A DNA stretch of 64,000 nucleotides from Phoronis australis (GCA_002633005.1 NMRA01000095.1:631108-695107), one strand, 5' to 3'. Positions 32,044 to 62,160 are shown, counted from the stretch's first letter. The notes: generated by a model not told the origin, from the sequence alone. A program made the numbers and translations.

Positions 32044-33342
32044 TGTTAGTGTTTTGCGTGGTGATGACACCCAGTGTAGACAACTGTTTACACACCTGAC
32101 AAACAAACCCTGTTAAAAAGAAATCTAAACTATGAGTATTTAGTAGGTAATTTGTAAACATGTGCATTGTGGAACTGTTTTGCAAATATGCTTTCATCTA
32201 TAGAGTAAAGTGTCACTGATTTAAGATACACTATATCAAACATGTGAAATTTTATTTTTTCATCCTTTATGAAAGGTTAGGAGCATCAAGTCAACGCTTA
32301 ATTTTTATATTATATCTTAGCCACCATGAGACAGTGTCTGTAGAAATCATGACAGGTATTCAGAATTGTGTCGGAAGCCTTCGTTAAATCGAAGAAAGAT
32401 CTATTTTGACAAGTATCGAGATTTTTACCACACCGTGTGATAAGTGAGCTGTAGTTGAATAAAAGCTCTGTGCGTCTGCCGTGAGGTGAATTTTAAAGCA
32501 AAATCTGCATCACATTCTCAGGAACTTTTTCTCATGTCTGCTCTGCAATGCTGTAGTATAGTCTGTACTCTACAATACAAGGTACCTAAACTACACGGTC
32601 AACGGACTCATAAACACGACTCACGGACCTGCAAACACCGTCCACTGACTCACAAACACGGGAACGGACTCAAAAACACGATCCACGCACCCAAATACAC
32701 GGGACACGGACTCACATTCACGAGGAAACACGGTTAACGGACCGCCAAACACGGGTCACGGACAAAATGACGATGTCAGCTGACCCAGGAAGCCGATGAG
32801 TCCGTGNTGTTAGTGTTTTGCGTCGTGATGACACCCAGTGTAGACAACTGTTTACACACCTGACAAACAAACCCTGTTAAAAAGAAATCTAAACTATGAG
32901 TATTTAGTAGGTAATTTGTAAACATGTGCATTGTGGAACTGTTTTGCAAATATGCTTTCACCTATAGAGTAAAGTGTCACTGATTTAAGATACACTATAT
33001 CAAACATGTGAAATTTTATTTTTTCATCCTTTATGAAAGGTTAGGAGCATCAAGTCATCGCTTAATTTTTATATTATATCTTAGCCACCATGAGACAGTG
33101 TCTGTAGAAATCATGACAGGTATTCAGAATTGTGTCGGAAGCCTTCGTTAAATCGAAGAAAGATCAATTTTGACAAGTATCGAGATTTTTACCACACCGT
33201 GTGATAAGTGAGCTGTAGTTGAATAAAAGCTCTGTGCGTCTGCCGTGAGGTGAATTTTAAAGCAAAAATCCGCATCACATTCTCAGGAACTTTTTGTCAT
33301 GTCTGCTCTGCAATGCTGTAGTATAGTCTATACTCTACAATA
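32044..33342 (+). repeat. About 534 bp direct duplication (32044-32577 and 32808-33342) separated by a truncated MITE and a single N
   Basis: Copies differ at about eight positions; the duplicated ORFs 31652..32197 and 32776..32961 share the same start. Confidence 0.9.
32578..32806. mobile_element. Left half of a TA-flanked MITE, same family as 40417-40834
   Basis: ta|caaggtacctaaa...cggactcataaacac..., cut off at the N. Confidence 0.8.
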
Positions 33343-40200: not shown

Positions 40201-40416
40201 AGACCACTCCTGGGTTTGTGTATATAGGCTAAAGGCAACAATAGGAATGCACTGGCCTGCCTTTGTTATACTGTATGGGACCAGAGTTATGTTTGACCAT
40301 GCTACTTAAACAGCTGATGGCCAATTTGTCTCCCAGGTCATGTGTTAAATTCTGTCTAGGATTACCCAGTACCAGGATCCTTTGTGACAAATGACCAACA
40401 TCTTCATCATCTGATA

Positions 40417-40834
40417 CAAGGTACCTAAATTGGTTAACGGACTCATAAACACAGTCACGGACGCATGAACGCGACTCATGTACCTGCAAACACCGTTCAC
40501 TGACTCATAAACATGGGGACGGACTCACAGAACATGATCCATTCACCCAAATACGAGGGACATGGACTCACATTCACGATTAACGGACCGCCAAACACAG
40601 TTTACGGACAAAATGTAATGTAGAGTGTTAGCTGACCCAAGAAGGATGAGTTCGTGAACCGTGTTTGGAGGTGCGTTAACCGTGTTTCTTCGTGAATGTG
40701 AGTTCGTTCCCATGTTTGTGAGTCAGTGAACGGTGTTTGCAGGTACGTGAGTCGTGTTCGTGTGTCCGTGACCATGTTAATGAGTCCGTTGACCATGTTA
40801 ATGAGTCCGTTAACCGTGTAGTTTAGATACCTTG
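40417..40834. mobile_element. Full-length, largely palindromic MITE (caaggtacctaaa...tttagataccttg)
   Basis: Long internal inverted repeats (cggactca/tgagtccg, cctgcaaacaccgttcactgactca/tgagtcagtgaacggtgtttgcagg); TA at the left flank. Confidence 0.8.
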
Positions 40835-43297
40835 TGATAGGAGTATAGTTATCACATACAGTCATATATAGGTTTTGATTTTGAAAAGTTTCAATATCAA
40901 ACAGCACACTTTCCATTGGGCGTGTTTTTGAAGAAATTGCAGACGAAAGCACGTGTGAAAATCAAAATACCATTGGAAATGACTCCTGCAACTCTGTTAA
41001 CATTACTGGCATTTTTTCCACTTACAAAACTACTAGGAATAACACAAAAACTCAGTACCTGTGAACAAAGTATGAGACATGAAAGCATCTTTAAATATTT
41101 CTCACTCTGTAGCTCAGTTCAGCTCCACATTTGTTTTAGTTCATGTTTTAAGGGAGACATTTTGTTGTTATTCTTTAATATACACGAAAATACCTGGACT
41201 GAGTGGAGTTCATATCAGAAACATTCGTTGTCGCAAACTTGGTTGAAGCTTTTAAATTCAGCTTGATTTACTTGGCACTGCTTCGTATAGTTGTAATTGT
41301 CCATGTTGCTGGCTTAGCAAAATCTGATTTAGTTGTGAAGTTCCACTTTAAGAGTTAAAGCAGGTATGACCCACCTTTGATCACATACAACAACTTTTGA
41401 TTTAGACCACTTATGGTAGTTTAGTGCTATGAAATTGGTCTGAAAATTTTCCATAGTCAAATTGGAGAGGATTTCAAGACTTCAGAAGCACTGACAGTTC
41501 GTTATTCTTGAAATCGGCCGCTATATCTTGTCATGGTCCAGGCATGGTCCAGGCATGGTCCAGGCATGGTCTCCAGTAAATATGTAAGTTCGTTGCATAT
41601 GGAGAAATCATTACTGATCTGAGTAAGAAAGGTTAGTTGAGGCCAATTTTATAGCTCCTTTGACGGCTTTATAGCCACTTCAAATATTGGCAGAAATGTA
41701 TCTTCAGTATCTCTGGTATTTTGGTAAAAAGCTCCAACTAGCACTTCCTATTACTGTACTGTCAAAACAGCCGTCACTCAACTCTTGTTCTTTCTCTACC
41801 AAGACCCACATGAACCAAGGGTTCCAACATGCACTGTCACAACAGCCACCCCACTGCATAAGCAAGGAGTAATTACTATTTCTGTCCATTGTTACAAGCA
41901 TGTCACATGATTCTTGTGAATGGAGGAGAGCCAGATGTTGAGACATTGACCTGACCTGAAAAATCACTCCTAGCCTCCAACCCACACACCCTCATCACCT
42001 GTTGATTGTTTAATTTTTAATGATGGTGTTTACAAACTAGCTTTTAAGTGATTTTATACACAGTTGTCTAAACTGCTACTGAACAAGCTGGACTACTAAA
42101 AGGCATGCGATAAAAATCTTGTTTCTGTTTAGTTACTTTCGCCTTTCTTGAAAGCAGGAAAATGATACACGGAGATGGAAGCAGATCCTGGTAATGATTG
42201 ATCCATACTGTGCCTCAGTAGGACTCTTTCAATTGTTATTTGATGTCATTTCAAATCTGTCAATCACTGACTCTGACCTTTGATTCTGGTCTTTCCTGCC
42301 TGCCTTCCTCATAACCCAGCAATATAGGTCACGAGAATGGAATGCCTCTGCTGGAAGGAGTGATTTAGCCAGTTAGAGATTAGCCGATTGTCTGGCCCTT
42401 GAGTCTCTTCAGCTAGTGTTATTGATGATAAGTGTGATGGAGTGACTGATCAACAGGTCTATACATTCTTGCTAGGGGCCTTGATAGTCATGTCACCTAG
42501 TTATGACAGTGTGAGGTGTGCAACAAGTGTTCTGGTACCATAAAATGTACTAACACTGAGATGCTAAGAGATGATGCACGACTACAATAAATTCTCATCA
42601 ATATATGACGCGGAGACGTGAACTTTTAATTTCTCATTTTTTCATAAAAATATATATGGCCAAAATGATGCTCTGTCATGTTCATGCTGTGCAACATTGC
42701 TGCCAACAGACAAGATATTGTGTGAGGGTGGCCCTTCATAACATTGTTGAAAGATTTGGAAAAGTGAAAAAGGGGCAGTTTTGGCAATTCTTTTAGTTTT
42801 TGGTGATATTTTTGTTGGTAAAGTAAAATTAAGGAAGGTTTTTAAACCAGTAATATGTACAGGTTTGTGTTGACAAAACGTTTGTTTGCATGTTTTATGT
42901 CTGCTCTGCTTAGTGCGTTTAACTCACAACTGAAGTTGAAAAATTGACTTTTGTTTTTTTTGAAGACTGTTTGTGTTCCGTCACGTGTTTGTGGTAGTCA
43001 TTTAGCATATTATGAGCGAACTTACACGGTTTCTGTCCAGTTTTGTGACTTCCACGATACCACGCCTGATGGTTTGAAAACGAATTGTAAACTTATAGCC
43101 ATGTTATAATAAGCGTAACTTTCTTGACATTATTCTTTTGTTAGAGATTGAGAATAAGAAATTAATCTTCTTCCACTCGCCATTTTTGTGTTCCAAACTG
43201 GATAGTCTTTCGATTAGTGTTGGCGCACATGTGTACAACAAGTTTGAACTTTCCGTTCTTGTCTACCACTGACATGCATTGTCATTGTGTTTTCCAG

Positions 43298-43499
43298 AAA
43301 CAAGTCCATACGATGGCCTGAGGTCAATGTTCGAGTTGCCATTTCTTATGCAGTTCATCTCCTTACATCAAGAAAAGTTCAGCTTTCCCAAGATTTCAAT
43401 CAGTGAATTTGAAGAGTGCCTCTGTGATCCCAATAGTGCCGTTATCCCGGATATTATTGCTAGACTTCTACGCTATTTCACTGGAAACAGTTCTATCTT
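43298..43499 (+). CDS. Exon: DDT-like domain (LRSMFELPFLMQFISLHQEKFSFPKISISEFEECL...IPDIIARLL)
   Basis: tttccAG acceptor and tt|GTaagt donor. Pattern resembles the CECR2-type DDT N-terminus (LRSxxExPxIxxFxSLxxxxFxLPxFxIxELE...DLIAxLL). Confidence 0.8.
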
Positions 43500-46400
43500 G
43501 TAAGTAGGGTGTTATCACTCGTTCTTATAAAATGTTTATCTGGTTTGAGATTTGTTGGGTGTGGAGCCGACTAGGTTTTCAATCTCACGTGTCATGTTCT
43601 ATTTGCAATCGTCCAATCGAGAGAAACGTATCATTAAAAGCGATTTCATACTGAGTTAACTCTGGTATGAGTGGAGCGTCAGTGTAAACTGTGAAGTTAC
43701 TTTATTTGGTAATTAACGTCATCAAAGTAAATACAAGGTAGCGCTGATATATCCCGTGCATGCTAACATTTTTTAATTTGACAATTTGAGAACATTTTCG
43801 TGTGCTAATTGACACTAAACCTATTTCTAACTCAATTGGTGATTATTTGAACAAAATATAAGCAACTATTAAAGATGACACTGCCCTTTAATTGATGACG
43901 ATACTAGCGGCCCCTAGCGATAACTTCAATGAGACTGATGTGGACCGATGCTCTGCTGTGAAATCCACCTGTTTACTGCCAAGTAAACTGGCACTGTTAA
44001 CTTCGATCCAGGACCAAAGTTAACCATTCATACTGACCGCAACTCCCCAAAACTTTGACGTGTTGACATTAATATGAACGGGCCTTAAGAACCTAGACTG
44101 CATATGTGCATGTGAGGGTAAATGTCCTTGTGAGGGTGAATCTCCTTCAGTTTCTTCCAAAAATGAATGCCAGTATCCATTTTCCAAAAGCTTATGACGC
44201 TGCTAGAAATTCGTGAAAGTTATACATGGCGAGTTGTTTGATAAGCATGCCATGCAATACAAGTCAAGCAATAAACGTATTGCTATAAGTATCTGTATCC
44301 AAAAATGTGACTAAATTGTACTTTTCCATCACGTGGCGTCTTGAGTTGAAGAATCTGTCGTTAATGCTTTCTGTGATCGCGTGACAGGGGAGGTAATGTG
44401 CTTCCTGTTTTTTAATATCTTGTAATGTTTTATATGTGATTAGCGATATAACTGGGGAGAATAAGCAGATGATGTGAACAGACCTTATAAGTAGTCGCTG
44501 CACTTGAAGATGTTTGATACGGATGAAATGACAGAAAAGTGTTATTTTTGTGCGAAATAAGTGTCGAGTTGCCGTCTTCTTTTTTGGTTAAGTGTAAAGC
44601 TGACTTAGTCCTCAAGTGTAAAGCGTACTTAGTATTTATCTCATGCATACGTACGATAAAAATTCTTCAGTTTCGGACACAATATGGAGAACAGGTGAAA
44701 TTTTATTTTGGTAAATATTTGGACAAAACTAAGGTTTTAGGAAAATTTACTTCACTTCTGAAAAATAAAAATATGAAAGTTTTAGCAATTGTTTTTGTCC
44801 TAAATTGAAGACCTTTTGCTGTAGTAGTACATAAATGCACTTTGGTTGATATGGGCTTCACTGTATTATATCACCTTGAGCTATATATGTTGAGAGAAAC
44901 GATCTGTTGTTATCTCCCCCTGATGCCCCTGGCTATGCAGAGTCACACTGTGAAAGTCTATCAAAATGCATGTTCAATCTACTTGCTTTGGCGCCAAGGA
45001 AATATTTGTAATTAAAAACATTTTCAAAAGTATATGAAACGTTTTTCGTTTTGACTGAGTCTCCCCTTCGTCCATAAAGATTTTTTTCCAAATACTGTAT
45101 GTCAAGTGTCGTCTTCTGATAGACGATTCAATCGACGTTTTAGGAAAACATTAAAGCGAGCATTTATTGCTAACCCTTATGTTTTGTACAGCTATTGAAA
45201 TTTCGTCAATCATACTCAATTTAGTAGTTCAATGTTTGTTCTGTAAAATCTCACCAATTTAGGACACAATATGGCCTCCAAGTGAAATTTTATTCACGTG
45301 ACGTTACTCCATAAAAGTTATGTGACACCAAATTAACGCTTGTTAAACTTCAAAATCTATACTGTAGCTACCATTAAATGGTTTTTAAAATGTGGCCATT
45401 TGCAACAATGTTTGAATCATTTGAGAAATGAGAAAAGAGAAGTTTTGTGCGAATCTACCAAAAGCCCCTGCAACATCGTTATGTTTTCATTTCAGAATAA
45501 ACAGTTTTGAGTCCAGCCTGTGCCAGTTGTTAAACGACAAGCAGAGGGACTTCAACCCACTGAATTCTGGGAAATTTGCTGATTTATCTCCTGAAGAAAA
45601 GGTAGTGTACAGTTAACCCCCATGATTTTTTATTTACTTATTATTTTCTGATGACTGTTAATGCCGTGCAACTGATACAGAGGCGACAATGGTACTTCAT
45701 GGAAAGTGTTGAAGTTGCCCATATCTATCATTCATGTTCATTACAAAGAGCTTCCCTATGCCAGCATATGCTTACATTGAATGTCTTCTATTTGGGAGGC
45801 TGTGCAAGCTAAACTTAGTGGTACTTTGTTGGTATGATAACATTACCATCAGCCGGGGCTCCTCCAAGACAACTAACTTTTGAGTTGAGCTACTGGTCTG
45901 TACTTGTTCCTTACCCAGATCAGAAGTGATTTCTGGGTTTGAGAAGAACTGGCAGTCCATTAGTCCACCAAGTGCCATTATATTGGTTCACCATGTGCCA
46001 GTATATTGGTCCACCTTGTGCCAATATATTGGTCCATGAAGTGCCAGTGTATTGGTCCACCATGTGCCAGTATATTGGCCCACCATTTGCCAGTTTATTG
46101 ATCCACCGTATGCCAGTATATTGGTCCACTGTGTGCCAGTATAATGGTCCATTGTGTGCCAGTATATTGGTCCACTGTGTGCCAGTATATTGGTCCACCA
46201 TGTGCCAGTATATTGGTCCACCATGTGCCAGTGTACTGAGTCAAGGCTCCAGCAGTAAGGAACTATTAGTTTTTCCCAAGCGTAGAAATCACTTCTAATT
46301 TGAGCAAGGAACAGTTTCGTTGTGGTAAGCTTTTTCAAATGGAAAGTTTCTTTTCATAGTTAAACTGTAGCTTAAAGCAGCATTTGATATAAAGTTTTTA

Positions 46401-49400
46401 GCATTTGCAACAGTGTACTGAATCTGTGTATACAGAAAAAAGTTTTAGTCAAGAGTAGAAGTGTCTCTTCATGCCACCAGGTGTCAGTAGGGGCATTGGT
46501 ACCATGTGACAATAATGTAATAATGTTTCCTGGAATTCTCCAGTTGGTGAACTCTAATGCTCAATCTCTTAATGTTTGACCCGAGATGTACTTTTGCAAA
46601 GGCCAGGTAGTCAATAATACATCACTGCCAAGCGTGACGTGAGCACAAGTACTCTAGCTATTAAGCTTGATCTATATGTTGGATGACAAATGATAAGCGT
46701 GTTAAGCTGCCAATGTCACAAAGATGAAGTGGGCAATGTTGTAGAGAGTCCTTGCAATTCATCCCTGTTACTGTGCAGAGTCATTTCTGTCCAGTGGGTG
46801 GGGACACAGAGGCAGGCGTCTTGTGTTATCCAGCTGGTGGGGACACAGAGGGAGGCAACTATGTTGTCTAGTTGGTGGGGACACAGAGGCAGGCGTCTAT
46901 GTTGTTTAGTGGGTGGGGACACAGAGGCAGGCGTCTATGTTATCCAGTGGGTGGGGACACAGAGGCAGGCGTCCATGACAATGAGTTCAAAAGGTCATGC
47001 ATTCTCTTTATGCGCCCACGTATATACATGTATGGGTGCATCATTTGCTTTCGTTTGCCATTATATAAGAAGCCGTTGTTCCGATAAACTGACATTTTGC
47101 CTCATCATGTAATGACGTTATTGAGAAAACATTAATGATGCGGAGTTTAGGCTCTGTGCTTGAAACTAGACTAAAAAATTGACCAATGGCATGGCACACT
47201 TTTGGAAAACTTACAAATTTGTTCTCGAATCATGCAGTCTGATAAGTGTAATTTCGTGTCTGAGTAAAGTCAGCGAGTTCAGCAATAAAATCCTGGTTCT
47301 AGTGGTTGGTTGCATAAACCTACGCAAGTTGTTTGTTATATATATTGGATTGTTTCATGACGTCAAACACATTGCATTGTTCAGCAATAACAAGGTGATG
47401 TGTGGTAATGCTATGTTTGACATCTAACGTAGAATGTTAATGTAACTGGATCTAGGTTATATTATTAAAGTGTTAATTACATTACCACACTACTCTGTAC
47501 TTGGTGTGTGAGTGGTTTACGTGTGTACTGTTGTAAAAAATATGAACTTAAGAAAAGGACGTATTTCCTTCTTGGGCATTTCAGGAATTTTAGATAATTT
47601 GCACAAGTTTGTCAACAACATAATGTTCTCAGTTCATTCAAATTTACTGAAATGACCACAAATTTACTGTCATAAGTGTGAATTTACTAAAATGACTACA
47701 AATTTACTGAAATGACTACAAATTGACTGAAATGACTATAATTTTATTGAAATGACAACAAGTTGACTGAAATGACTACAGATTTACTGAAATGACTACA
47801 AATTTACTGAAATGACAAAAAATTTACTGAAATGACTATAAATTTTCTGAAATGACTACAAATTTACTGAAATGACTATAAATTTGCCGAAATGACTGCA
47901 AATTTATCGAAATGGCTACAAGTTTCAGGAAAGATGCTTTAGTGTTGCAGAAAATGGTAGCAATTTTTGTTATTTTCAGTGAAAGAGTTAAAAGCAAATA
48001 ATTATTTTATTTTTTTATTGTAACTGTGCAGTGTCCAAGGATTTTGCTTGGACTAACAGTTCAGTGCAATGTCATGTTTTCCACTCTGCCTCATGTGACA
48101 ACACAATAAAAGACCTATCATGTAAATCTGCGAGAGATCAGATGATTTACAAGCCAATATGTAGGTTAATTTCATAAAGCAATCACTGTATTTTTGCATG
48201 ATTGAGCACGTGGACATACCGTCTGCCATTCAGACTTACCAGTGAAAAGTTCAGTCTTAGTTTCATACCATTGACACAATCACCTTTCTCACTTACATTG
48301 AATGAATTCACCTCTTTTCCATTCGTTTCATCTGCTGCTAGTGCACAAACGATACTCTTAAATCGCATTGAAACAGGCAGACTTGTGACATATCAAAGTT
48401 TGATTTCATGGAAGCGAGGTTTTTTGGACTTTTAAAGCCATTCCGTATTATCTTGAGCATTGTTGGCAATTCATGTGGAAATCTCACACTAGCCGTGATT
48501 GAAAGCATTATTGATTATTTTCCTGTTTCTATTTTTTTCAGCTTCAGTTGCTCAAATGGTTAGTCGATCTAATTTGTGAAAGCCGGGACGATGATCTCAA
48601 TGAGTTTCTCAACGACTCCTTCGACCCGGAGAGCATGGTTTGTACATCACTGTTCTGTAAGGGGGCTCATGAACATTCACAATGTCTTAAAAGTCTTCCT
48701 TGGTTGTAGTAACAAAATCATTTTCGTTGGGCATCTTTACGCTAGCGCGTGCGAGTAAGCCGCAACGAACATTGTAGAATTAGATCAGGAAGCCTGGCTG
48801 GTGAAAAATATTCCTACAAAATTGTCTGGTATTTCCTTTTAAGGCCTTCGAGCTGGGAGAGCCCAGCTGTCAGAAATAAAGATGACTACATTCCTTGAAA
48901 AAAAAAAAACATAAGTCTTGATTTTTGATAGGGAATCTCTTGGTCTAAAAGTCCTTAAAAATGAAAATCCCAGACATGCATTTGTTGCTAATAGAATAAC
49001 TAAACAAAATTTGTAATTAATGTTTGCGAAAATGTGGCAATCTCTGTGAAAAATCATGATTTGTGAGAAAAAACGCAATCTCGTGGTTTCTAATATCAGG
49101 ACATTGTTTCCATGCACATAACAAAATTCTGTGATCATTTTAAAAAGATTGTAAAAATATTGTTTTATGTACTTCTTAAAATACTTTAAAAACATTATTT
49201 AAGAAATTGGTTCCCTGTTAACTGAGTTTGCCTGTTACCTTGGCATTGTACAACGTCACTGGGAACTAGCAAAAGTGCCTTTAAGAGTGAATGGGCTATT
49301 TCAAAAGTAAATTTTCAGTTATTACAACAGTTTTAATTCTTTGCACCAATGTGTGTTTTACAGCGTGCCGTGAATGTCGGCCAAGATGCGTTTAATAACA

Positions 49401-52400
49401 CTTACTGGTACTTTGATGGTGAGTTAACTCTTTGTTTATTGTAAAATTTGTTCAATTTGTGACAAAATGTAGTTGCTCTAATTGTCGTTTTTCTCTCCAT
49501 TTTTCATAAGCTTATTTCTCATCAGCAATTGATGAAAATTTGACCAATTGTTGTTTGATGAGTGTTGTGCAGCATTAAGCGTGTTAGCGATGAAGTGAAA
49601 CGTTTTCACGTTATTGTTTTCGTTGGGAAATTTGATAAAATGAAATTCCAGTTTTCTGCCATATTTCGCCTTAAAATAAAGAAGTTTGTTTCACTTTGTA
49701 AACAGTTACAGATGTTAGTAATGAGTGACTCTGGCGAGGGTTCAAAGAAATATGTTTATGTTTCTTTTAGTAGTGCACTTGTTTACCTGTACATGGTTAA
49801 CGAGGGAAGGGGTGAGGAGTACATGTGAAAGAGTGTGTAGATAGATACATGGCACAAATTAGGTTTGGAATCTTTACTGACTAGTCATTGAGAAGACCGG
49901 CTGCTTTGACAAAGGCTTTTTTGTTGACTACTCTGAGGCATTCGACCCAGTTTGGGAGAGGGGGTGCTTCTAGAGATTTGCAGTATGTACATAGTTGTCA
50001 GTATTGCCTGACAAATTTTACCCCACCAAAATGTAATCTGCTTCGTCACAAATGGACTCTTAAACTTTTTTTTACTGAATTATGTGAGGACCTTTACATG
50101 GGTCAGCAGTGCTTGCGGTTGTAGGAAACTGAAACCTCAGATGTAGTTTCATTTCATTCAAAATTCATATCCAATGTGCAGGTTATTTTTTTTTTTTTTT
50201 TTTTTTCTAGCATGGATATTTACAATTTACACGACACAATAAACANNNNNNNNNNNNNNNNNNNNNNNNNNNNNNNNNNNNNNNNNNNNNNNNNNNNNNN
50301 NNNNNNCCCCCCCCCCCCCCAACTTACTCTTAGTAGGATGTTGTTAGGCAAAAGTTATGGTTAACCAGTTTCTCCAGGTTGCATGGTATTCATCTAAATT
50401 ACCATTATTTAATAAAATCCTTCTTTGAATATAAAATTCTCTTTCTAATATCTTAAGGAACTGACAGAAAACTGGGGATTACTTTTTTACACCTGGATAG
50501 GTAAATAAAATGTGCAGGTTATTGTTATCATTTCCATATAAAGACACTTTTTTTTTCTATTGTTTGTACATGTTTTCCAACCACTATGGATAACCTGGAA
50601 ATGACAAATTTAGTTTCCATATTTTAAAAACACGAAATTTGTGAAAATTTTCATAAAATGGGTACAAGTACCCCTCATTTTGTGAGTCTTATCGCCTATC
50701 CTTGCGTTTAATTATGTCAGGCAATTTTAGTTAGCAAAATAACTGTCTGTTTACATTTTGTGGGAAACCAACTCATGAGAAATGGCAGTTATATCTTAAG
50801 TAACTTAATATATAAAACTTAAATCATTGAAAAGGAAAACAACTATAAATTGGATCCATGTGGAGGTTTTTGGAAATTTCAAATATTAATGAATCCATTT
50901 TGAGAGAGAATGATTGCCTCATTTTGTTCTGTGGATAGTGTTTAGTGAAGGAGTGTTGTTCATAACTATCTTGTCCCCCCAACTGTTGCATCTATTCCAT
51001 CATTTATTGCTCCACCTGTTGACAGGTGTTTGAGACGCGAGATGATTAAAGTAGGTGTGCTGACTTCATTAATAAGACTACACCTCGTAGCCTTCTCATC
51101 TTCTGTTACACAGCGCTGGTGCTTTGTGTACTTGAGGAATTCATTTCACCGCTCTATTGATTGCAGAAATTAATTTTAGCTTTCCAACAAACACACCGTT
51201 CAATGGCAAAACTTGACAATCGGTTCAGTTCCTGTTAGGCACTCTCTCGACTTTCTTTTCCAAATATTTACTCTACACTCCTCAAAGGAGGTATTTATAA
51301 GACTACCAGAGAGTTTGTTTTTGCCTGTTTTAATAACAACAGCAATTGATTCTAACGCTTGTGTTTTATGACTATTTGTTCAGATCAACGATTATACAAA
51401 GAGAACAGTAAAAAAGCCGGCAAGAGGGAGTGGGAGTGTGTCTGCCTGTCACTGAAGGACTGGAGGACATTATTGAAACAGTTTCGCAAGACTACAAACG
51501 AGCAGGAGAAGGAACTGTTTGACTATCTAAACAATCAGCTATTTCCATTGGTCGAGATCCAGTTGGAGGTAGGCTTGTCTGCAACTCTATGCTCTCCGTC
51601 AAGCAAACGTTTGATGCAGAATGTTGGCAGTTTGCCAATCTAGGGACCCTTTGTGTCAACAGGTGTTGACTCCCCCATCAATGCAATTATTGAAAACAAG
51701 AAATGTTTGCTTGGCGTATTTCTGAACTAAAATAATTTTTTCTGGCGAATGTGACAACAGAAGCTAAAACATCGCCACGGAAACGTATCCCAACATAATA
51801 GTGATATTTGTTGTGAGACGTGGTTATGACTGATCTGACCTTGTTTCCAGAATCAAGAGAAGGCTCTATTGGAGTGTTCGCCTGGCTCGCACAACACTGA
51901 GTTGAGCCAGGACGTACTGACTGCCCGCGAGGCCAGGCAGTTACAAACTATGGTCAAGCTTGAAAATATGTCCGCAGGCAGTAAAGACAGTGAAGTCAAG
52001 ACGGAACAACCCGCTGTAGTCAAGACTGAAGAGAAAAAGAATAACAATGCAAAGAGTGAGTATGTTGGTGGTCAGGTTGTGGGGTCAGAGGTCAAGGGTT
52101 AGAAGTTAGGGGGTTTGGGCATTGATGTGTCCATCTGCAGGAGACTTGATAGTGGCAGATTCAGAAGTGGAAGTAAGGGTCTATGGCCTCCGATGAAATT
52201 GTCTTGATTTTAGTCAGTGGTCATGTTTAAGATTCAAAAAATCAACATGTGAGGGTTACTGGAGCTCCCTCTGTAGTATGAAGTATAAGTTTCAAGACTG
52301 CTCTAATTATAACTATTAAGTGGGTACAGTAAAATAACTAAAAAAGGCGTTCATTAATGTTGCTAAAATCTGAATATAGTGTAAAAATCGTGGATTACTC

Positions 52401-55400
52401 TCCGACTGTTATACTTAACCATTGAAGTAAATACAATGTCATACTTTACCATTGGAGTAAATACAATATATTATACTTTACCATTGGAGTAAATACAATA
52501 TGTTATACTTTACCACTGGAGTATTTACTAAATACAATATTTTATACTTTACCACTGGAGTATTTACTAAATACAATATGTTATACTTTACCATTGGGGT
52601 AAATACAATATGTTATACTTTACCATTGGAGTAAATACAATATGTCAATGATCACTTATTTCTCATTATAGCAATTTCAGTGACTTTAGTGTGCTTTGTT
52701 TTATAGTGTTTGTTTTATTAAATGTTGATTTACGTGGCAGACACATTGTTCTTTCATCTGCCAGGTGTTTCCAGCACTCTGTTATTATATTAGGACATAA
52801 ATGTGATAAAACATATCAGGGTAGTATTCTGTTGTTCGGTAATTCCTAGAATGGTTTCAGCTGTTTGTTATTTCTAGACAACAAATCAAACTTTGTAAAA
52901 TCTGAAACGGATGTGACTAGCAGTCTGACTTGGATGACATTGGTAATTTTTTATTGATTTAACAAAAAATTGTACATAGGCACCCGTCATGCTAATTTGT
53001 ATAGCAAAACATGCCATTAGACATTTAATGCCAAGTGTATGAACGGTACATGAACAGTGCACGTATGGTAAGCATGACTATTTCAGCAGTGAAGCCTTTG
53101 TATCAATGAATCATTGGAAGAATAGCAGTAATTATAGACAGGTTTCTTAGTTTTATTTCTAATGCATTATGCAGTAGTATGCGAGTGCATGGGGCATCTG
53201 AATATTATGCGAGTGCATAGCACAACTGAAGAATGCTTACTATTTTCACACTTGTATTTGTTTCTGAGACTGCGTTCAGTGAAGGGTGAAGTGAAGTTTG
53301 GGTTGGTTTCAAACCCAGGGGTCCTCCACTGGGTTGTCCGTAGGATGAGCCACTTATTAGAGTCTCTAATGAGGGAAATAGTCTGGTCGAGTACTGCCCG
53401 AGTTAGAAAAGAATGAGCCTATCACTGTACGCTGTCTTCTTTGTTGCACTAAATGTTATCCTTCTCTGTCTTGCATTAACCAGTTGTCTTTGCTTTGTTT
53501 TTGTCCACTCAGCTGAACTTGAGGCTCTGTTAGACTCTGACACTAACCAGGAGCCATCTGCAGGTAAGAGGGCTTCGTCTTTTTTATGTGCACTCACCTG
53601 CCTTATGGTCTTACTTGTTTTCACTTGAATATTGGTGGCCAAAAAACTAGTGATCTGATTCATCTTACTTTCACGTGCCAAAACCTTTTAGAATCATTCC
53701 CAACAGATGTCCTGACGCTATTTAACTCTGACAATATGCAGTGCACCACAAGGGTTTCAAACTTGACACAATTGCCCAAAATAACATAGTCATCTTGCGC
53801 AATGAGATTCAAATATATGGTCTTGAACAATATGATTTGAGCTTGAATAATTACTAAGCCACGCTTCTGCAAGAAAAATGTCACAGACTCCTCTCGAATT
53901 TTCATGTCTAAACAGGCATATGTCATGCCATCTAGTGTTTAGGAAAAGAAACAACCAGAGGTCGTAATCATAGAAATGCCTACATCTAGTTAGTCACATG
54001 GGTTCCTGATGAAGTGTTTTCTCCTCTCAATCTATTCAGATGTTGAAAAGAGGAGCTCTTCTTCAGCTCGGTGAATATCGAATCCCCTTTTCAATTTTTG
54101 AGACATATCATGCACTGTGTCACCTTAATTTTTTGGTGATGGAATATGTGCTTAGTCTTGCTGTAGCTATTCTGGTGGAATTATTTTGCATTTTCTGCTT
54201 TGTAAGTTCTTCAAGTTTTGTTTGTTTGGCCTAATGGCGGTTACTAGTTCATATATGTTCACAACCGAAGTATTTGGGGGTGAACTACAAACAGTAGGAA
54301 TATCCATCGAGAGCCTTTGACAATATAGTAACCTTTAACCTTTACCATCTAGAGGTGAAACCCGTGACGCCGACGACTCAGAGTGTCCCTGTCAAGCCAA
54401 AAGGGCCACACAGCAGGCAGCAATCCCAGGAGTCACCCTTTGTGCAGCAAAGGTCTCAAATATTCGTGTTTTCAACGAAACTAGCAAATAAAGCGTCAGA
54501 GGGCGTATTGCAGGGGCGCTACGACTCCATTCTGGCGTATCACATGGATCAGCCGGGGACAAAGAAATTTTTACAAGTAAGAAAGCTGTTGTTTATGGCA
54601 TAGTAGTGTATTCTAGTGTATTCTATGGTATTCTAGTGTATTCTAATGTATTCTAGTGTCTTCAACTTGTTAAAGCTTCTACAGCATTAGTGCCACTGAT
54701 GTTTGTTAGTTTTAAACCAGTGTACTAAGCATATTGGTTTGTGCAGTAAAAATTCTCCAGTTTGGTTCAGCAAAAGATTTATTACTTTGCTTTAAGGTAG
54801 ACGATGTTAGCCTTCCAAATTCAAGAATCATCTGAAAAAATCAAAATTACTGGCACTCTGTAGATTGAAAATACATTTTCTGAAATTTGAGAAATGTGGT
54901 GAACGTCAAAATCATCTTTGCACCAGAATGGAGAAAAAAGTCAAATTTTGTGGAAGTTTCCTTGTCTCAAATTCTTTAGACTGTCCTAATTTGGAGAGTT
55001 TTTACTGTATTAAAACTCTTTCTTCAAAAGTATTTGCAGGAAAATTTCATAGACCTCTGGTGATACTTTTCATTATCGACTTTTTTTAATCTTCGTGATG
55101 TGATGTGTGGCAGTGTACAACTTTGTTTCCACAAATTCTTTACTTTATGTAACCACATACAGAAACTTGACGGAAACGCCATTTTGTGATATTCAGCCAT
55201 TTTGTGATATTCAGCCATTTTGTGATATTCAGCCATTTTGTGATATTCAGCCATTTTGTGATATTCAGATAATTCCTCTTAACTTATGTGATTGTGTTCA
55301 CCTAATGTGTTTTTCATTTGTTCGTTTGATGTCGGAACAAGTGCTTTGTTCTATAGTTGTCTATTGCCTGCTGATGAGCATAGTGGGGACTGACTCCCTG

Positions 55401-58400
55401 AAATCTGTTGAGCTTGTGTCGCACATAAACCACTGAGTCATTGGTTAGAAGAATAAGAATATGACCTTTTGCTAAGACTGTAGACACCCCCCTTTTTCTC
55501 CGATGGTCGACAGCTGTTGTTCCAGCTCTCAGTGGTAGTACTGTACCAAATACTGAAACAAAAAGGAGTCAAAAGTACTCCAATACCTTGAAAAACTCCG
55601 TCAACTGTGATGTGCAACAAACCAGTGTGATGTTTAACTCCAGCTAGCAAATAGTCATTAAACCAAACCCGAGTGTGTTACCAACTCTGAAAGGGTGGGT
55701 ATTTTAATTTTCTGGTAAGACGAGCCAAATCTAAACTTTGCTTTAAATGGCATTCGGTTTTGGTATTGCCAGAGTATTGATATCAAATTGTCAGTATTGT
55801 AATGGTGCTGTGTGACACAACTCTATCATCTCCATATGTATATATTGTCATGGTGCAGTGTGACACAACTCTATCATCTCCATATATTCGTGAAGGCTCT
55901 CTTGTCTACTCTACATCGTCACGTGTGTTTTCTGTCATTACAGAAGCACCCAATGAAGCCATCACAGTTTAACAAACTGAACACTCCAGGGATGCCCATG
56001 TACACCAGTGCATCAGACATGATCACATCCAACACTACTTCGAGTATGCCAAACGGTGGCGTTCCACCCAACCAAATGGTGCTGCCCCCTAATGGTTTGC
56101 ATTCTATGAATGGTGGGAACGGCGTGCAGAATGTGGACTGGCCAGGCTCCCCCAATTCTATGCTACCGGATATTACGCACAATAAGGTCCCGGATGAGAA
56201 CTTGACCCCGGAACAGCTGCACCGGCGAGAGGAGCAATTGGCCAATATACGTAAACTTCAGTCAATGTTGTTCCCGGACAATAGCAATCCAAATGCGCAT
56301 AATCCTCAGCTTGCCCCAATGGGTAATCACCCGGGCAATGGACGGCCGTCGAGTAAATACGGTCCTCAGATGGGGCCCTATCCACAGCCCATGATGGGGC
56401 CAAATGGGTCAAACATGCCTGGCAGCTTTGGACCAAATATGCATGGACCTGGACCACATATGATGAGCCCAGGAGGGCCCAGTATGATGGGACCAAATGG
56501 TCCAATAGTGCCCAATGGGCCACCTATGGCTCCTGGACCTAACGGTCAGAACTTTGGCACATCCTCAGCCATGATGATGTCACACCAACAGGCCATGATG
56601 TCACAGCCAAATGTTGTGATGTCACAGCAGAATATGATGATGTCAACATCGCAGCATCCCAATATGACAATGAACATGTCGGCACAATCGATGAGTATGG
56701 GCCCGCAGCCTATGTACTCTCCCCCTATGATGGACATGCGACCTCCCTCTGGCAACATAGCCGAGAAGGAATGGGCACGACTGCAGCAGGAGTTCTATGG
56801 TGGTCGCGGTGGCGCTGCTGGCATGCGCCAGCAGTCGACCATCCATGCAGCCAATCCATTTGCAGACAATGAGTTGCCGTCTCAGGGACCACCGCCCCCG
56901 TACTACAGCTCAGTTAGTCACCGCCACTCCAGCGTCTCATCAGGACCTACCTCACCGCCCATGATCGGCGCCCCGTCCCCCATGCACTCGCCAGCGGCAC
57001 TGACCTCTCCACATGTCAACCCTCCTCAGGGTCAGTTCATGTATCCTCCTCAGCGGAGGCCGACCCCGGCGACTATGAACTATCCTCCAGGAGCGCCCAT
57101 GATGCCTGACCTGCCTCCAGAGATGATGGGATCCCCAGGTTTGAAATTAATAATCCTACTGTTTCATTCGTATAAGTGTGAAAAGCTATGTTTTGTCAAA
57201 GGAATTAAGTTTCATTTTAGACCACTTAACACTGTAAAAGGTTTCTCCACATGCACCTAACGCAGATAATTAGAAAAGTCTTGTATCCAGAATATTCAGT
57301 TTTGCCCAACTTTCTCATTCAGTGACTCATAATCAGCCATTAAAGTGGGTAAGTAATAAAAACATTCTGCTGAGTGCTGTTCAAAGTGAGTCTGCGTGCA
57401 CTTTCCAAGGTCCAACCGTATGCAGTTATAACTATGATGAAACAAATTTGAGGTGGCTTAGATCTGTGCTGGATGTTATACAATCATAACAAACGAAGTG
57501 TTAATCTCCTTATTTCAGAACTTGGGCTATTACTCCTCACAAATTCAAAATCGGTGCAAATCAAGTGTCACTATGGAATCTCATTTGTGTCTTGAATGAT
57601 AGTCGGGCTCTTGAGCTCAGAATTAATGTGCGCTGTCTCGCTTATGGTATTACGTTTTCATTCCGTTGTTTTAGGGATGCGAATGCCAGGTGGACATCCT
57701 AAGGAGGTGACTGTAGCCCGAGCTGGACACCCAGAACCATTCCAACCAGAGTTGACGTCTAGTCAGGGAGGAGGTAACAAACCGCCACCCAGTTACGCTC
57801 AGTCAACCAAGCGTAAGCAACGTGACAATGTTGATGATTTGTACAAAAACTTACAGCCTGCCCCATCACCGCAGCACTTCACATACCCAAACCAGTTCGA
57901 GGGGCAGGAATTGACAATTACGAAACAGTTGAATGCGGCGTATCAGGAGTCTCCTGTCTCGCAGTCTCCAGCTGTCAGTCAACCAATAGACACACCCATA
58001 TCTGGACCCGCCTCCGTTCCGACAACAGGACCCCCGTCTGTTCCGCCGCAGGGTCCAGCATCCGTACCACCCCCTGCCACCCCTCACACGCCTTCCGACT
58101 CTCAAGTGTTCAACAACGAGACCAATGCGAAAAGTGTGGCAGCTGCGGGCAGGAGACTGTCGCATCTCAGTTCACCCGCGCCCGGAACTCCGGGCACACC
58201 GGTGACGAAGCCGAACTTGTCTAATATCACATCGTCAAGTTTGGCAAATCTGGCAAAGGGTGTGGAAGACATGTCGCATCAGATGCAACAAAGTATGTTA
58301 CAAGGGGGACCGTTTCACAGTATTCAGGTGCAGAGTCAGTCTATGGACGACATCCCTGGCAAGAGCACAAACTCTACTACGCAGGGACAGCAAAACGTGA

Positions 58401-59893
58401 ACAACACTTATGTGAATACAACAATGTCAATAGGTCAGTTGAACATACAGCAGATGAATCACCTCCAGAACCATCCATCACAGGGTCACCCAGGTCAAGG
58501 TCATCCACCACAGGGTCATCCACCACAAGGTCACCCGGCACAGGGTCACCCAGCTCAGGGTCATCCGGCACAGGGTCACCCAGCACAGGGTAGCACGGGA
58601 GTCCCTTCAATACCACACATGGGGGGGCCGACACCTCCGCATTTGACAGCACCCCCAAGCGCCCACTCTGTAGGCAGACCTTCCTCGAGGGGCTTCATGG
58701 AGATGTCCCAACAACGCCAGCAGATGATGGCCCATGGTCCACAAATGTTACCTCAACGGATGGACAGCCCGCAGCTCATGGGCAGTCCAGAGTTTACCAG
58801 TCCTCATGGGCCACACATGGCTAGTCCCCATGGTGGAATGGTCAATGGGCCACCCTTTAATAGTCAACATGCACACCCTATGATGCCTGGTCAGTCACCC
58901 ATAGAGCGCGGTCCAATGATGATTCCTGGGGGAAGCCCCCATGGGGCCCCTCACATGGGACATCAGATGGGGCCAGAGTTCATGGGTCCCTCCCCTTCCA
59001 TGTCCCATCCTGGCCAGATACCTAGTCAATACCCACCGGGAATGCCAATGGCTGGCATGAGGCCAGGTATGTTGCCTGGTTCCCGGTACCCTCAACCATC
59101 AGACCCCCAGTTTATGAGTCCCGCCGTACCCATGCCCTCTCAACCAATGCCGGCAGAGCCCCAGCCTGCACCTCCACCCACCACAACAACGTCACGAAAA
59201 CGAGGTCGCAAGACATCCAGCAGCACTAATGTCAAAGTTCAGACAACTGCCCCCAACACCATCCAGTATCTTCCAGCCAATCCTCCATCCTCACAAGCCG
59301 GCATGGGTCCACCACCTCCTAAGCGATCTTTCCCCGACCAGTTCACAGAGGCATTCCCAGCCGAGCCCTTACGTAACCTAGACAAGAAGGTACCCTCCTC
59401 CAAACTTTCATACTTTCCACCCAGCGAACAGAACCACCTGGAGTACAGTCGTATGACCTCCATGGCTCCGGTCTATCAACCTGGTCATCAGAACCCTAAT
59501 GTAATGTGTGGGTCCCCGTCCTTCCCGTCTGACATCATCCCTCCGTCCTCACTTGGTCATGCTGGGCCTCCTATGGGTGATCCAATGATGAACCACAACA
59601 TGCTTCCATCCCATATATCCCCTTCCATGAACCCAGGACACATGGCTGGCATGCCACCAAGACATCCTGGCTATGGGCCAGGTCCCATGCACGAGATGAG
59701 TTATGGACATCGTCAGCCCAATGAGTACAGTATAGGTCCCAGAATGTCGGCTCCACATCCCGGGCCCTACCCTGGTCACCCCGGTCACCCTGGTCACCCC
59801 GGATATGGTCCTCAGATGGGTCCACCTGGACCAGATTTTATGGGCCCTCCTGTGGGTGACCCGAGATATATAAATATGATGTCAGGCATGTGA
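43298..59893 (+). CDS. BCL9: Spliced gene, BCL9/Legless homolog with N-terminal DDT-WHIM1-WSD module; join(43298..43499,45496..45601,48542..48637,49364..49418,51384..51568,51851..52055,53513..53563,54353..54576,55944..57138,57675..59893), 5' end incomplete
   Basis: All ten exons have AG acceptors with pyrimidine tracts and nine have GT donors. Phases chain 2,0,0,1,0,1,1,0,1 without a stop. Total 4538 nt plus 1 upstream nt is 1513 codons ending in TGA at 59891-59893. HD1, HD2 and HD3 motifs are recognisable. Confidence 0.85.
45496..45601 (+). CDS. Exon: start of WHIM1 region (INSFESSLCQLLNDKQRDFNPLNSGKFADLSPEEK)
   Basis: ttttcatttcAG acceptor; first base completes tt+a = Leu; aag|GTagt donor. 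NPL...FxDLSxEEK is typical of the WHIM1 start. Confidence 0.8.
45955..46233. repeat. 23 bp minisatellite (gtgccagtatattggtccaccat) x about 12
   Basis: Direct tandem units. Confidence 0.9.
46790..46975. repeat. 38-39 bp minisatellite (ggtggggacacagaggcaggcgtctatgttatccagtg) x about 5
   Basis: Direct tandem units. Confidence 0.9.
47640..47925. repeat. 20 bp minisatellite (aaatttactgaaatgactac) x about 14
   Basis: Direct tandem units. Confidence 0.9.
48542..48637 (+). CDS. Exon: WHIM1 helix (LQLLKWLVDLICESRDDDLNEFLNDSFDPESM)
   Basis: tttttttcAG acceptor and atg|GTttgt donor; 96 nt, phase 0-0. Continues EEK-LQLLKWLVD, the WHIM1 pattern. Missed by the ORF track. Confidence 0.8.
49364..49418 (+). 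CDS. Exon: WHIM2/WSD motif (RAVNVGQDAFNNTYWYFD)
   Basis: gtgttttacAG acceptor and g|GTgagt donor. RxxxxGxDxxxxxYWYF is the hallmark WHIM2 motif. Confidence 0.85.
51384..51568 (+). CDS. Exon: WHIM3/WSD region (DQRLYKE...WECVCLSLKDWRTLLKQFRKTTNEQEKELFDYLNNQLFP)
   Basis: tttgttcAG acceptor, phase 1 (g+at = Asp); gag|GTaggc donor. RLYKE...WxxxCxxxxDWxxL...ExELxxxL...P matches the CECR2/RSF1-type pattern. Confidence 0.85.
51851..52055 (+). CDS. Exon: linker with VKLE, VKTE and VKTE SUMO-consensus motifs
   Basis: ttgtttccAG acceptor and a|GTgagt donor; open frame, phase 0-1. Confidence 0.8.
52407..52645. repeat. About 31 bp minisatellite (tgttatactttaccattggagtaaatacaata) x about 7
   Basis: Direct tandem units, two with a small insertion. 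Confidence 0.85.
53513..53563 (+). CDS. Small symmetric linker exon (TELEALLDSDTNQEPSA)
   Basis: Long pyrimidine tract ending ccactcAG and g|GTaaga donor; 51 nt, phase 1-1. Confidence 0.7.
54353..54576 (+). CDS. BCL9: Exon: BCL9 HD1, Pygopus-binding (QIFVFSTKLANKASEGVLQGRYDSILAYH)
   Basis: Close match to BCL9 HD1 (VYVFSTEMANKAAEAVLKG...IVSFH); ccatctAG acceptor and caa|GTaaga donor. Confidence 0.92.
54744..55007. mobile_element. Tc1/mariner-type MITE (cagtaaaaattctcca...tggagagtttttactg)
   Basis: Inverted termini; internal similarity to 10594-10890. Confidence 0.65.
55178..55268. repeat. 18 bp tandem repeat (gccattttgtgatattca) x5
   Basis: Direct tandem units. Confidence 0.9.
55944..57138 (+). 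CDS. BCL9: Exon: BCL9 HD2, beta-catenin-binding (VPDENLTPEQLHRREEQLANIRKLQSMLFPD, 56187-56279); HD3 (AEKEWARLQQEFY, 56760-56798); NPFxD and PPPPY motifs
   Basis: Long P/M/G/Q-rich open frame with HD2 and HD3 motifs; cattacAG acceptor and g|GTttga donor. Confidence 0.93.
57675..59893 (+). CDS. BCL9: Terminal coding exon: P/G/M/H-rich low-complexity C-terminus
   Basis: ttgttttAG acceptor, phase 1 (g+gg = Gly); 2.2 kb open frame to TGA. Confidence 0.9.
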
Positions 59894-62160
59894 TAATCTG
59901 CTGCTGGTCAGAGTCCATTGGACAACTGTAAGTGCCTGTAGAAAAAGGACACTAAAAATATACGCGAAAAGACAAGACAAAGCTGTGTTCACGGCTGAAG
60001 TTGATTTTCAAAAAACCTTAATGGTACTGATGTGTGAGATTATAATAGACAATAAGTTTCAAAGCAGTAATTGGCCGCTGCCTGTTCTGTGTACTTGTGA
60101 ACACAATGCCTTGTGAGGCAGACGGTTGGAAGCTAGACTATTGTAGTGCGAGAGAGTGGAGCTTGGGAGCAATATGTTGATACATATAACTGCAAGCTGA
60201 AATGTATCTCACTTGGAGATATATAGCCGAATATGGGGTAAAAAGCAATATAGACAAAGCTGAGTGTTACCGCGGTTATGTAAAAGATATTCTCTGATGA
60301 ACTGTTGTGAACTTATTAGATGGGAATATCACAGTTGGTGTCTGGTGAAGATGTCTGTTGGAGACTTGCCTTAAACAGATTATGGGTGTATTTTTATTGG
60401 ATATTTATAAGAGCGCATGACTGTGAGATGTTTGTAGATAAAAACAAAAGTGGCTTGTATATATTTCTTATTTGGTCTCTTTTTAAGTGTCCAGCTTTAT
60501 ACATGCGTTTACTTAGGAACAAAATGTGATTGAAGGGTAGTGACGAAATTTGAAGTTGTCGTGGAGGAGATGTCCAGACACGTGCGTTCATCTTGTGGAT
60601 ATACCAAGTTTTATTTTAGTTTGTTGCAGACAGGAGAGAAGTTTCCTGCAGATTATACAATTGAACAATCTCAGAATGGTTATATTGTGTTCAAAAATTG
60701 ACAGCGGGTCGCTAAAAGACGAGGTTTTTAATGGAGCCGACTGTATTGTGTGTGCTGAAATATGAAGGATTGTAAAACGTGAAGGTTCAATTTCGCACGA
60801 ATGAATATTAGGGAATTGAATAATCTTGGTGTGTGTAGAAGCGATCGAATGAACTTCGTAACCTACGAATGTGGGTGTGTTTCAATACTCATATTCTTGT
60901 GATTTGACTGATGACGGAATTGTAAATCATGTTTAGACTGTTAGTTGTTTTTGTAAATAAGGGTCAATTGGGTACTTGTGTGATTTTTTAGCATCGTAGA
61001 GTTTAGATTTTTGGATGTACATAGTCTTATGTAAAACTGATATTTTTATAACATTGAGAAAAAAGTATGTATTTTAATGTCGGAACTTGTTTTTTTGCCT
61101 CCACTACATACATTTGCATATTTTCTAGCATAATTTTTCTGTTTTATCTCTGTTTATGCTTTACTGCATACTCCTTCAGATTTGTTTTCACACTTCTATT
61201 CCACTATGCAAAATTGATTTATTGAACTAAAAACATTTTTAAATGCCATATTCCAAACCAAATCTATTTTAAATGGTCAAGGCTTATTGTGTACTTGGGT
61301 CAAGCCAAAATTGCACACTTAAACTGTGGTGGTGAAGCTTTTTTTGAAGCAATCAATGAACTTCATCGCGCCCATGGTTTGTTGATGTGTAAGTTGGAAT
61401 GTTTGTTGTATTTAAAAGCCGAAAGGAAGGGTCCAAATCGTAACAATCTCTATAAGAGAGGCGCGTGGATCTACAGATTGGCATGATGTGTTGCCGAATG
61501 CTCGTGAAGACCTGGGCTCGAATGATCGTTATAAATGTAAGTTTATGCAACTTTAACTGGAATGAGAAGCAGATTCCACATACTTCATGCTGTCGCCACC
61601 CAGTGTGTGAGAAATGAACTAGTTGCTGACAGCCAACACATTCTGCCCCATACAATAGCATATCACTCAGACTCTAGCCTATGCCGTGTCTAAGGCAATG
61701 CTAACAGGGAAATGGCTGGATTGTAGCGACTGTTGCCGTAGCTACCCCAGGCACGTGTTTCTGGTGAGCTGCCACGTTTTATCAGAGGTTTATTTTGTCT
61801 TCATTTTAAAAAGCTGCATTTCGCGCTGTTAGGCTGGCTAAAGTGAAAATCGAATTGAGTCTTTTGTTCTCATTGAATGAGTACTTCATTTAATATTCCT
61901 TAATGTGATAGGATTCAAGTGCCGTTGCCTATTCAAGTCGCAAACAATGCGCAAATTTTGAATCTGCAATTATAGGTTTGCCAACCACAAAAAAATGCAG
62001 TGTTTTTGATGAGTTGCTGATGGTTTTGATGTTCTTGTTGGTAAAGAATACAAAATCGATATATGAAAGTAAAAGGCTCAATTCGATTTCCGGTTTGAAG
62101 GAGGGCAAAATGCCACTGGAATTTAGCGTTTATGCATCTGACAACAAATAAGTAAATAAA
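59894..62160 (+). other. Probable 3' UTR; candidate AATAAA at 62155-62160
   Basis: U-rich, low-repeat sequence after the stop codon, with Pumilio-type motifs. The true end is uncertain. Confidence 0.45.

Follow-up and report, generated by a model that had tools for sequence, protein, structure and literature searches.

Can a scaffold of the Wnt enhanceosome be, in its own right, a regulatory subunit of the ISWI nucleosome remodellers? The question is raised by a gene of Phoronis australis whose coding exons lie at 43298-59893 of a 64,000-nucleotide (nt) stretch of genomic DNA (GCA_002633005.1 NMRA01000095.1:631108-695107; hereafter the window, from whose first letter all positions are counted). 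An earlier note, made from the sequence alone, had read here a BCL9/Legless protein fused in frame to a DDT-WHIM-WSD module, and had proposed that the protein could act as an ISWI regulatory subunit recruited directly by beta-catenin. We consider it probable that this BCL9/Legless carries an N-terminal DDT-WHIM1-WSD module that clamps the tip of the ISWI SLIDE domain; BCL9 itself would then be a regulatory subunit of ISWI, anchored at enhancers that respond to Wnt. This reading starts from an observed exon chain, from the reads across its junctions and from a layout conserved in other animals, and builds on a predicted Ioc3-like fold and a predicted SLIDE contact.

A spliced fusion transcript

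Ten exons on the + strand, all with GT..AG ends and matching phases, form the coding chain; splicing them yields a single open frame of 1,511 amino acids (aa) plus a stop, ending at 59893, with 62 and 75 stops in the other two frames. Five DDT-WHIM exons, two linker exons and the HD exons, with phases matched and no stop, had been predicted, and all ten are confirmed. The RNA data consist of three stranded RNA-seq runs from one study (X2, X3 and X4; 151-nt reads, about one-fifth of each run) and one contig set (X1), mapped over 41500-61400, with a separate mapping for the 5′ end. The exons are as follows.

43298..43499, + strand: coding exon opening in phase 1, DDT helices at 43318-43479 (below-cut-off Pfam matches to DDT, E 0.028, and KIAA2026_hel, E 5e-4; junction reads)
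45496..45601, + strand: coding exon, helical linker and first half of WHIM1, from 45575 (Pfam WHIM1, E 0.13; junction reads)
48542..48637, + strand: coding exon, second half of WHIM1 and the helix and loop predicted at the ISWI SLIDE contact (junction reads; interface mapped from a chiton stand-in)
49364..49418, + strand: coding exon, WHIM2, the start of WSD with its beta-hairpin (junction reads; G, D, Y, W and Y invariant in 11/11 modules)
51384..51568, + strand: coding exon, WHIM3 (51431-51463) and the final module helices (junction reads; 65-74% identity to five BCL9 proteins)
51851..52055, + strand: linker exon 1, of low complexity and not conserved (reads at both flanking junctions; no Pfam match)
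53513..53563, + strand: linker exon 2, 51 nt (reads at both junctions; X1 contig rows, depth 13.3 on each side)
54353..54576, + strand: HD1 exon, Pygopus PHD-binding element at 54454-54552 (PDB 3zpv, E 4e-8; 2xb1, E 1e-7)
55944..57138, + strand: exon of HD2 (beta-catenin-binding helix, 56196-56276) and HD3 (56763-56798) (Pfam BCL9, E 7e-13; PDB 3sl9/2gl7, E 8e-4)
57675..59893, + strand: last coding exon, with a P/Q/M/G-rich tail and the stop at 59891-59893 (spliced frame; junction reads)

All nine junctions are supported by reads, on one strand only (9/9 in X2, 9/9 in X3 and 7/9 in X4), and X1 contigs span four of them. Read counts in X2, X3 and X4, respectively, are 11, 3 and 2 at 43499/45496; 6, 6 and 5 at 45601/48542; 3, 7 and 2 at 48637/49364; 4, 4 and 0 at 49418/51384; 6, 3 and 8 at 54576/55944; and 4, 5 and 3 at 57138/57675. 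The three joints that the earlier note had placed between the module and HD1 carry 6, 8 and 0 (51568/51851), 6, 2 and 2 (52055/53513) and 5, 2 and 1 (53563/54353), which is similar to the counts within the module and to those downstream. Among the joints listed, none competes for entry to the linker exons or the HD1 exon. The DDT-WHIM exons and the HD exons are expressed as a spliced fusion.

The BCL9 motifs

The HD2 exon scores 48.6 bits against Pfam BCL9 (PF11502; cut-off 25), the sole Pfam match above a curated cut-off in a scan that covered eight of the ten window exons, and HD2 also aligns to the solved BCL9 peptides 3sl9 and 2gl7; HD1 matches the solved Legless/BCL9 peptides 3zpv and 2xb1. 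HD3, described as a helix with an invariant W and an F/Y doublet (PMC5352222, in excerpt), is found as EKEWARLQQEFY at 56763-56798. From known BCL9 biology, HD1 would be expected to bind Pygopus, HD3 to bind Chip/LDB-SSDP and HD2 to capture beta-catenin. Neither a bromodomain nor a PHD finger was detected in the eight exons scanned or in the full-length BCL9 homologues scanned, in agreement with the earlier note, which had found no such exon; the bromodomain that a CECR2 orthologue would have behind DDT-WHIM is likewise not seen in the window exons scanned or in the homologues.

Identity and fold of the N-terminal module

Weak Pfam matches in the right order, together with the predicted fold, support a DDT/WHIM1/WSD-like module. 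The DDT of the window exon reaches 15 bits against a cut-off of 22, which two coral proteins pass (P0061 and P0021, at 22.7-22.8), and DDT is matched at E 0.5 or better in 5 of 11 module members. The module of the chiton Liolophura, 55% identical to that of the window and used as its stand-in for folding, shows the Pfam order DDT (residues 34-69), WHIM1 (100-124; 19.5 bits against a cut-off of 19.1) and WSD (146-190; below cut-off). WHIM1 of the window, split over two exons, scores below the cut-off, and its motif is absent from a plain six-frame search because the 45601/48542 junction divides it. The profile matches to DDT and WHIM lie in the expected order, with coral DDT and chiton WHIM1 above cut-off and the window exons themselves below it. 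The commonest Pfam match of the module is KIAA2026_hel, in 7 of 11 members (best E 4e-5), always below cut-off. The precomputed Pfam column of public homologue annotations mostly shows PF11502 only, and sub-cut-off scores are likely to have hidden the module from annotation. A PH_9 hint also appeared in the exon-level Pfam scan.

The AlphaFold2 model of the chiton module (pLDDT, the predicted local distance difference test, 86; pTM, the predicted template modelling score, 0.81) consists of a helical half and a beta-hairpin/helix half. Its best structural alignment, ranked first among 48,161 PDB chains, is 2y9z_B (Z 11.8, root-mean-square deviation 3.9, 211/230 residues), the only row that covers nearly all of both halves. 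Chain A of 2y9z is Isw1, which makes chain B its partner subunit; we take this to be Ioc3, the partner subunit in yeast ISW1a. Taken singly, the DDT-WHIM1 half (chiton residues 7-136) resembles CH domains of the Ndc80/Nuf2/augmin type (Z 9.5-10.6) and the WSD half (residues 146-228) resembles PH/EVH1 domains. A PDB sequence search with the module profile returned non-significant rows only, and an Atlas search returned DDT/WHIM1/WSD clusters at 0.76-0.87, including an RSF1-like cluster at 0.83, which serve as leads only.

Predicted contact with ISWI

An animal-type HAND-SANT-SLIDE segment of ISWI, taken from metagenome locus L015, was co-folded with the chiton module. The pair scored 0.68 (runs 0.70, 0.68 and 0.64), the best of three controls reaching 0.01; the runs share at least 96% of contacts, with a partner pLDDT of at least 84. 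The mark that this pair passes is reached by 51/78 solved and 2/108 mismatched microbial pairs, and by 71/105 solved and 2/126 unrelated eukaryotic pairs. At the predicted interface DDT helix 1, WHIM2 and the WHIM1-2 link lie on the tip of SLIDE, and the same SLIDE-tip interface is given for Itc1/Acf1 models (PMC12093815, in excerpt). The contact residues W158, W20, F28 and Q27 (numbered as in the chiton; F28 from the consensus) show little change between corals and chiton. The module is thus predicted to bind the ISWI SLIDE domain. The seemingly invariant SLIDE contact residues 247-256 were discarded as evidence, since the search pattern had selected for them.

Distribution across animals

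The search for DDT-WHIM joined to BCL9 in other animals, suggested by the earlier note, was productive. With the 61-residue WHIM3 exon as query, 5 of 16 candidates matched, all of them BCL9-domain proteins (chiton, horseshoe crab and spiders; 65-74% identity). Against 1.84 billion representatives the same exon gave 34 matches; among those of at least 400 aa with E <1e-7, HD1 is present in 9 of 10, the exception being an amphioxus model that ends in the linker, and seven weaker long matches have no BCL9 motifs, six of them with a PHD match at E ≤0.05. A profile built from 11 modules matched 24 of 7,990 candidates, and HD1 and/or HD2 is present in all 24; a region search with chiton residues 1-228, bounded by its word index, returned only the query itself among 640 candidates. 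Identity to the window module is 35-55% over about 215 columns.

Module, HD1 and HD2 occur together in Liolophura, Owenia, Tubulanus, Tachypleus, Limulus (with a partial module), Araneus, Nephila, Centruroides, the damselfly Ischnura and Branchiostoma belcheri. The sea spider Nymphon has module, HD1 and HD3. The bryozoan Watersipora (P0076) has module and HD2, with no detectable HD1 or HD3, so that either the gene model has a gap or the link to Pygopus is gone. The corals Pocillopora and Oculina have the module and HD1 (PDB BCL9 peptides, E 3e-4) and a weak HD2-like segment: the same segment ranks top in 6/6 coral-type proteins, yet between 6 and 78 of 500 shuffles score at least as high. A scan of three coral proteins detected no HD3, and with HD2 weak and HD3 unclear, coral proteins P0061-P0063 are not called BCL9 by Pfam.

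A tree was built from 23 modules, after removal of short fragments and of coral-type copies that were nearly identical. It separates corals (97/100) from arthropods (92/96) and from spiralians (86/81), places amphioxus outside the protostomes and puts the window module, with weak support, among the spiralians; it roughly follows animal phylogeny. The transcribed fusion is not peculiar to this genome; the layout is old and widespread. Vertebrate or dipteran proteins are absent from the named matches, many short matches being unnamed, and so are CECR2 and RSF1 sequences. Fly and vertebrate BCL9 are not known to carry a DDT-WHIM module. The tree and the range of carriers fit vertical descent from a cnidarian-bilaterian ancestor with later losses: the layout would predate the cnidarian-bilaterian split, with separate losses in vertebrates and in the insect line to flies, and the module-bearing BCL9 is likely to be the ancestral form.

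A proposed remodeller subunit at Wnt enhancers

In the mechanism that we favour, the DDT-WHIM1-WSD module would clamp the SLIDE tip of the ISWI ATPase, with HD1 on the Pygopus PHD finger, HD3 on Chip/LDB-SSDP and HD2 capturing beta-catenin. A flexible linker of about 115 aa could hold the ISWI motor at TCF enhancers and lead to nucleosome sliding or spacing there. The PHD that reads histones, present in cis in BPTF, ACF1 and RSF1, would come in trans from Pygopus. According to PMC5352222 (in excerpt), BCL9 is a constitutive scaffold of the enhanceosome that Pygopus (HD1) and Chip/LDB-SSDP (HD3) hold in place and that captures beta-catenin through HD2; recruitment of ISWI directly by beta-catenin, as first proposed, therefore probably has the direction wrong, and pre-tethering of ISWI at TCF enhancers would be the more likely arrangement.

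A wider proposal, for which the case is evenly balanced, is that BCL9 began as an ISWI regulatory subunit and that BCL9, Pygopus and ISWI constitute in most animals an undescribed, Wnt-dedicated remodelling complex. Such a complex would amount to a BPTF divided over two proteins, BCL9 carrying DDT-WHIM and Pygopus the PHD that reads H3K4me; after loss of the module, flies and vertebrates would rely on NURF, ACF or CERF acting in trans. The coral beta-catenin helix is weak while the module and HD1 are clear, and the ISWI-Pygopus link may accordingly be as old as, or older than, a strong beta-catenin link.

Weighing the alternatives

Several points weigh against docking of ISWI by BCL9. The junction evidence comes from 151-nt reads of one study, and no single molecule covers the distance from module to HD2. 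Pfam matches to DDT, WHIM and WSD lie mostly below the curated cut-offs. In the structural alignment CH domains follow 2y9z_B at Z 9.5-10.6 over half the model, a Z of 11.8 is within the range that helical folds reach through a common arrangement, and Foldseek with the chiton model returned nothing at E 1e-3 or better. Both co-folded chains are stand-ins (chiton module, metagenome ISWI), folded without alignments, and because the like complex ISW1a has been solved and stand-ins were used, the co-folding pass speaks for likeness, not for binding. Over 15 modules (eight rows dropped as redundant, partial or fungal) interface columns are slightly above the rest, 2.86 versus 2.16, a value reached by 857 of 10,000 random draws, and 8 of 18 interface residues are identical between window and chiton. 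Some database models are partial (amphioxus P0018 holds the module alone, scorpion isoform P0038 has none), the Watersipora model lacks HD1 and the coral HD2 is weak; loss in flies and vertebrates is inferred from absent matches. On the whole the earlier reading is supported by the transcribed fusion, the predicted fold and SLIDE contact of the module and the HD1 and HD2 matches.

The alternative that survives best, although we think it unlikely, is that the module does bind ISWI and does so as a decoy or repressive tether, which sequesters ISWI or spaces nucleosomes and keeps Wnt targets off until beta-catenin docks. NURF reportedly regulates Wingless output, as the title of Song et al. 2009 has it, and an activating role of NURF would speak against repression. 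On the repressive side stand the bromodomain and PHD not found in the protein, an enhanceosome said to repress as well as prime its targets before Wnt (PMC5352222, in excerpt) and the reported attenuation of Wnt signalling by SNF2L (PMC8567610, in excerpt). The module's effect on Wnt targets may be activating or repressive.

Less probable still is a fusion that is real and old and whose module has been repurposed to bind DNA, nucleosomes or another partner, and no longer ISWI. Interface conservation that is not clearly above background, the structural match of the halves to CH and PH/EVH1 domains and the fact that a co-folding pass can stem from likeness to ISW1a would all suit such a module; they are set against the whole two-part module, which best matches the ISW1a subunit, a predicted contact at the expected SLIDE tip and the retention of W158, W20, F28 and Q27. 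The notion that a short DDT-WHIM gene is a separate neighbour of BCL9, with sporadic read-through or a faulty gene model linking the two, would suit the module-only models P0018 and P0058, the module-less P0038 and junction evidence that is limited to the joints listed, with no full-length read, and is largely refuted and highly improbable given linker junctions as well covered as the flanking ones, a module exon that has neither stop nor 3′ end, the recurrence of this order within single proteins of animals as far apart as corals and amphioxus, and an amphioxus P0018 whose final linker words are those of the fused P0016, also from amphioxus.

Comparison with known systems

With BCL9, BCL9L and Drosophila Legless (PF11502) the window protein shares HD1, HD2 and HD3 in order and a P/Q/M-rich disordered tail, and it differs from them by the folded N-terminal module of about 215 aa. 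Characterised BCL9 proteins are described with HD1-HD6 only in the excerpted text of PMC5352222, where DDT or WHIM goes unmentioned. With the ISWI subunits CECR2, RSF1, BPTF/NURF301, BAZ1A/ACF1, BAZ1B, BAZ2A/B, Itc1 and Ioc3 it shares the order DDT, WHIM1, WSD, the module having a fold like that of the ISW1a partner and a predicted SLIDE-tip contact; in place of their bromodomain, PHD, WAC or MBD it has Wnt-adaptor motifs. The compact layout is presumably most like that of CECR2, and the module is putatively 'CECR2/RSF1-type', a label for which the RSF1-like Atlas cluster is a weak lead. CECR2 carries a bromodomain (PMC5575660), and human ISWI complexes are enumerated without BCL9 in the excerpt of PMC8567610. 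To the helical domain of KIAA2026/BRD10 (PF23450) the module matches mostly over the first third of the profile, in all cases below cut-off.

Among fungal DDT-WHIM-PHD proteins, Ascobolus RPA77976.1 is the closest named non-BCL9 relative found (29% over 214 columns); its own PHD, in cis, is like that of MLL5/ASH1L and not that of Pygopus, and it has no HD1 or HD2. An origin of BCL9 and Pygopus from one split DDT-PHD gene was considered and rejected, the PHD of this relative giving 29 PDB matches with no Pygopus chain among them. The comparison of BCL9-Pygopus with cis DDT-PHD proteins may thus be one of functional analogy only.

No description of a BCL9 with a DDT/WHIM module was found in the literature searched, which did not extend to most subscription papers or to the paper in which WHIM was defined (Aravind and Iyer 2012), where this architecture could be listed. 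Both parts are known; their combination, BCL9 with an ISWI-docking-type module, was not found in print within that scope. Work on BCL9/Legless has been confined almost entirely to flies and mammals, apparently the exceptions. If the ancestral BCL9 carries an ISWI-docking module, most animals would have a Wnt enhanceosome with nucleosome remodelling built in, the ties reported between ISWI complexes and Wnt output would have a physical basis and the short list of ISWI regulatory subunits would gain one more candidate. Vertebrates, in which BCL9 is a target for cancer drugs, would then pose the question of what took the module's place.

Gene ends and other features of the window

A short coding exon reading MPRKSKSQ, which matches homologue N-termini, is joined to 43298 in four X4 reads. 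It is absent from the readable letters of the window by script and pattern search, and so sits either before the window's first letter or within a run of N. The gene, which had been taken to extend from 43298, begins upstream of that position, and the exon at 43298 opens in phase 1 behind the MPRKSKSQ exon. Further features of the gene are these.

40360..40420, + strand: alternative upstream exon spliced to 43298 (four X2 reads at 40395-40418; donor GT at 40421)
57779-57802, 57893-57934, 58220-58267, 58397-58450, 59249-59278 and 59378-59419, + strand: short conserved blocks in the tail, within the last coding exon
59894..61400, + strand: 3′ untranslated region (UTR), reaching at least 61400 (unbroken same-strand read depth)

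The alternative exon would be 61 nt long if the acceptor at 40360 is used, and it has no in-frame ATG; it is either a 5′ UTR exon, with the start Met at 43327, or a frame-shifting exon. It adjoins a palindromic repeat, and 61 nt after the phase-1 first exon would shift the frame; a poison exon is one possibility, an alternative 5′ UTR another. The last exon contains a coding 15-nt repeat of the QGHP type, with 7.8 copies at 58475-58591.

Intronic repeats at 43796-43990 and 45237-45294 draw hundreds of partly matching RNA reads and are likely to have dispersed or tandem copies elsewhere; a recurrent 39-nt back-jump at 43892/43854, on the opposite strand, is seen in 77-211 reads. Upstream of the gene, an 18-nt minisatellite of 26 copies occupies 12447-12918, and a 535-nt direct duplication (98.5% identical; 32044-32577 and 32808-33342) surrounds a single N at 32807 and is possibly an assembly artefact. 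Imperfect palindromic repeats at 32593-32806 and 40431-40835 are related to each other (76-79% identity) and resemble miniature inverted-repeat transposable elements; further palindromes lie at 1470-1739 and 1887-2187.

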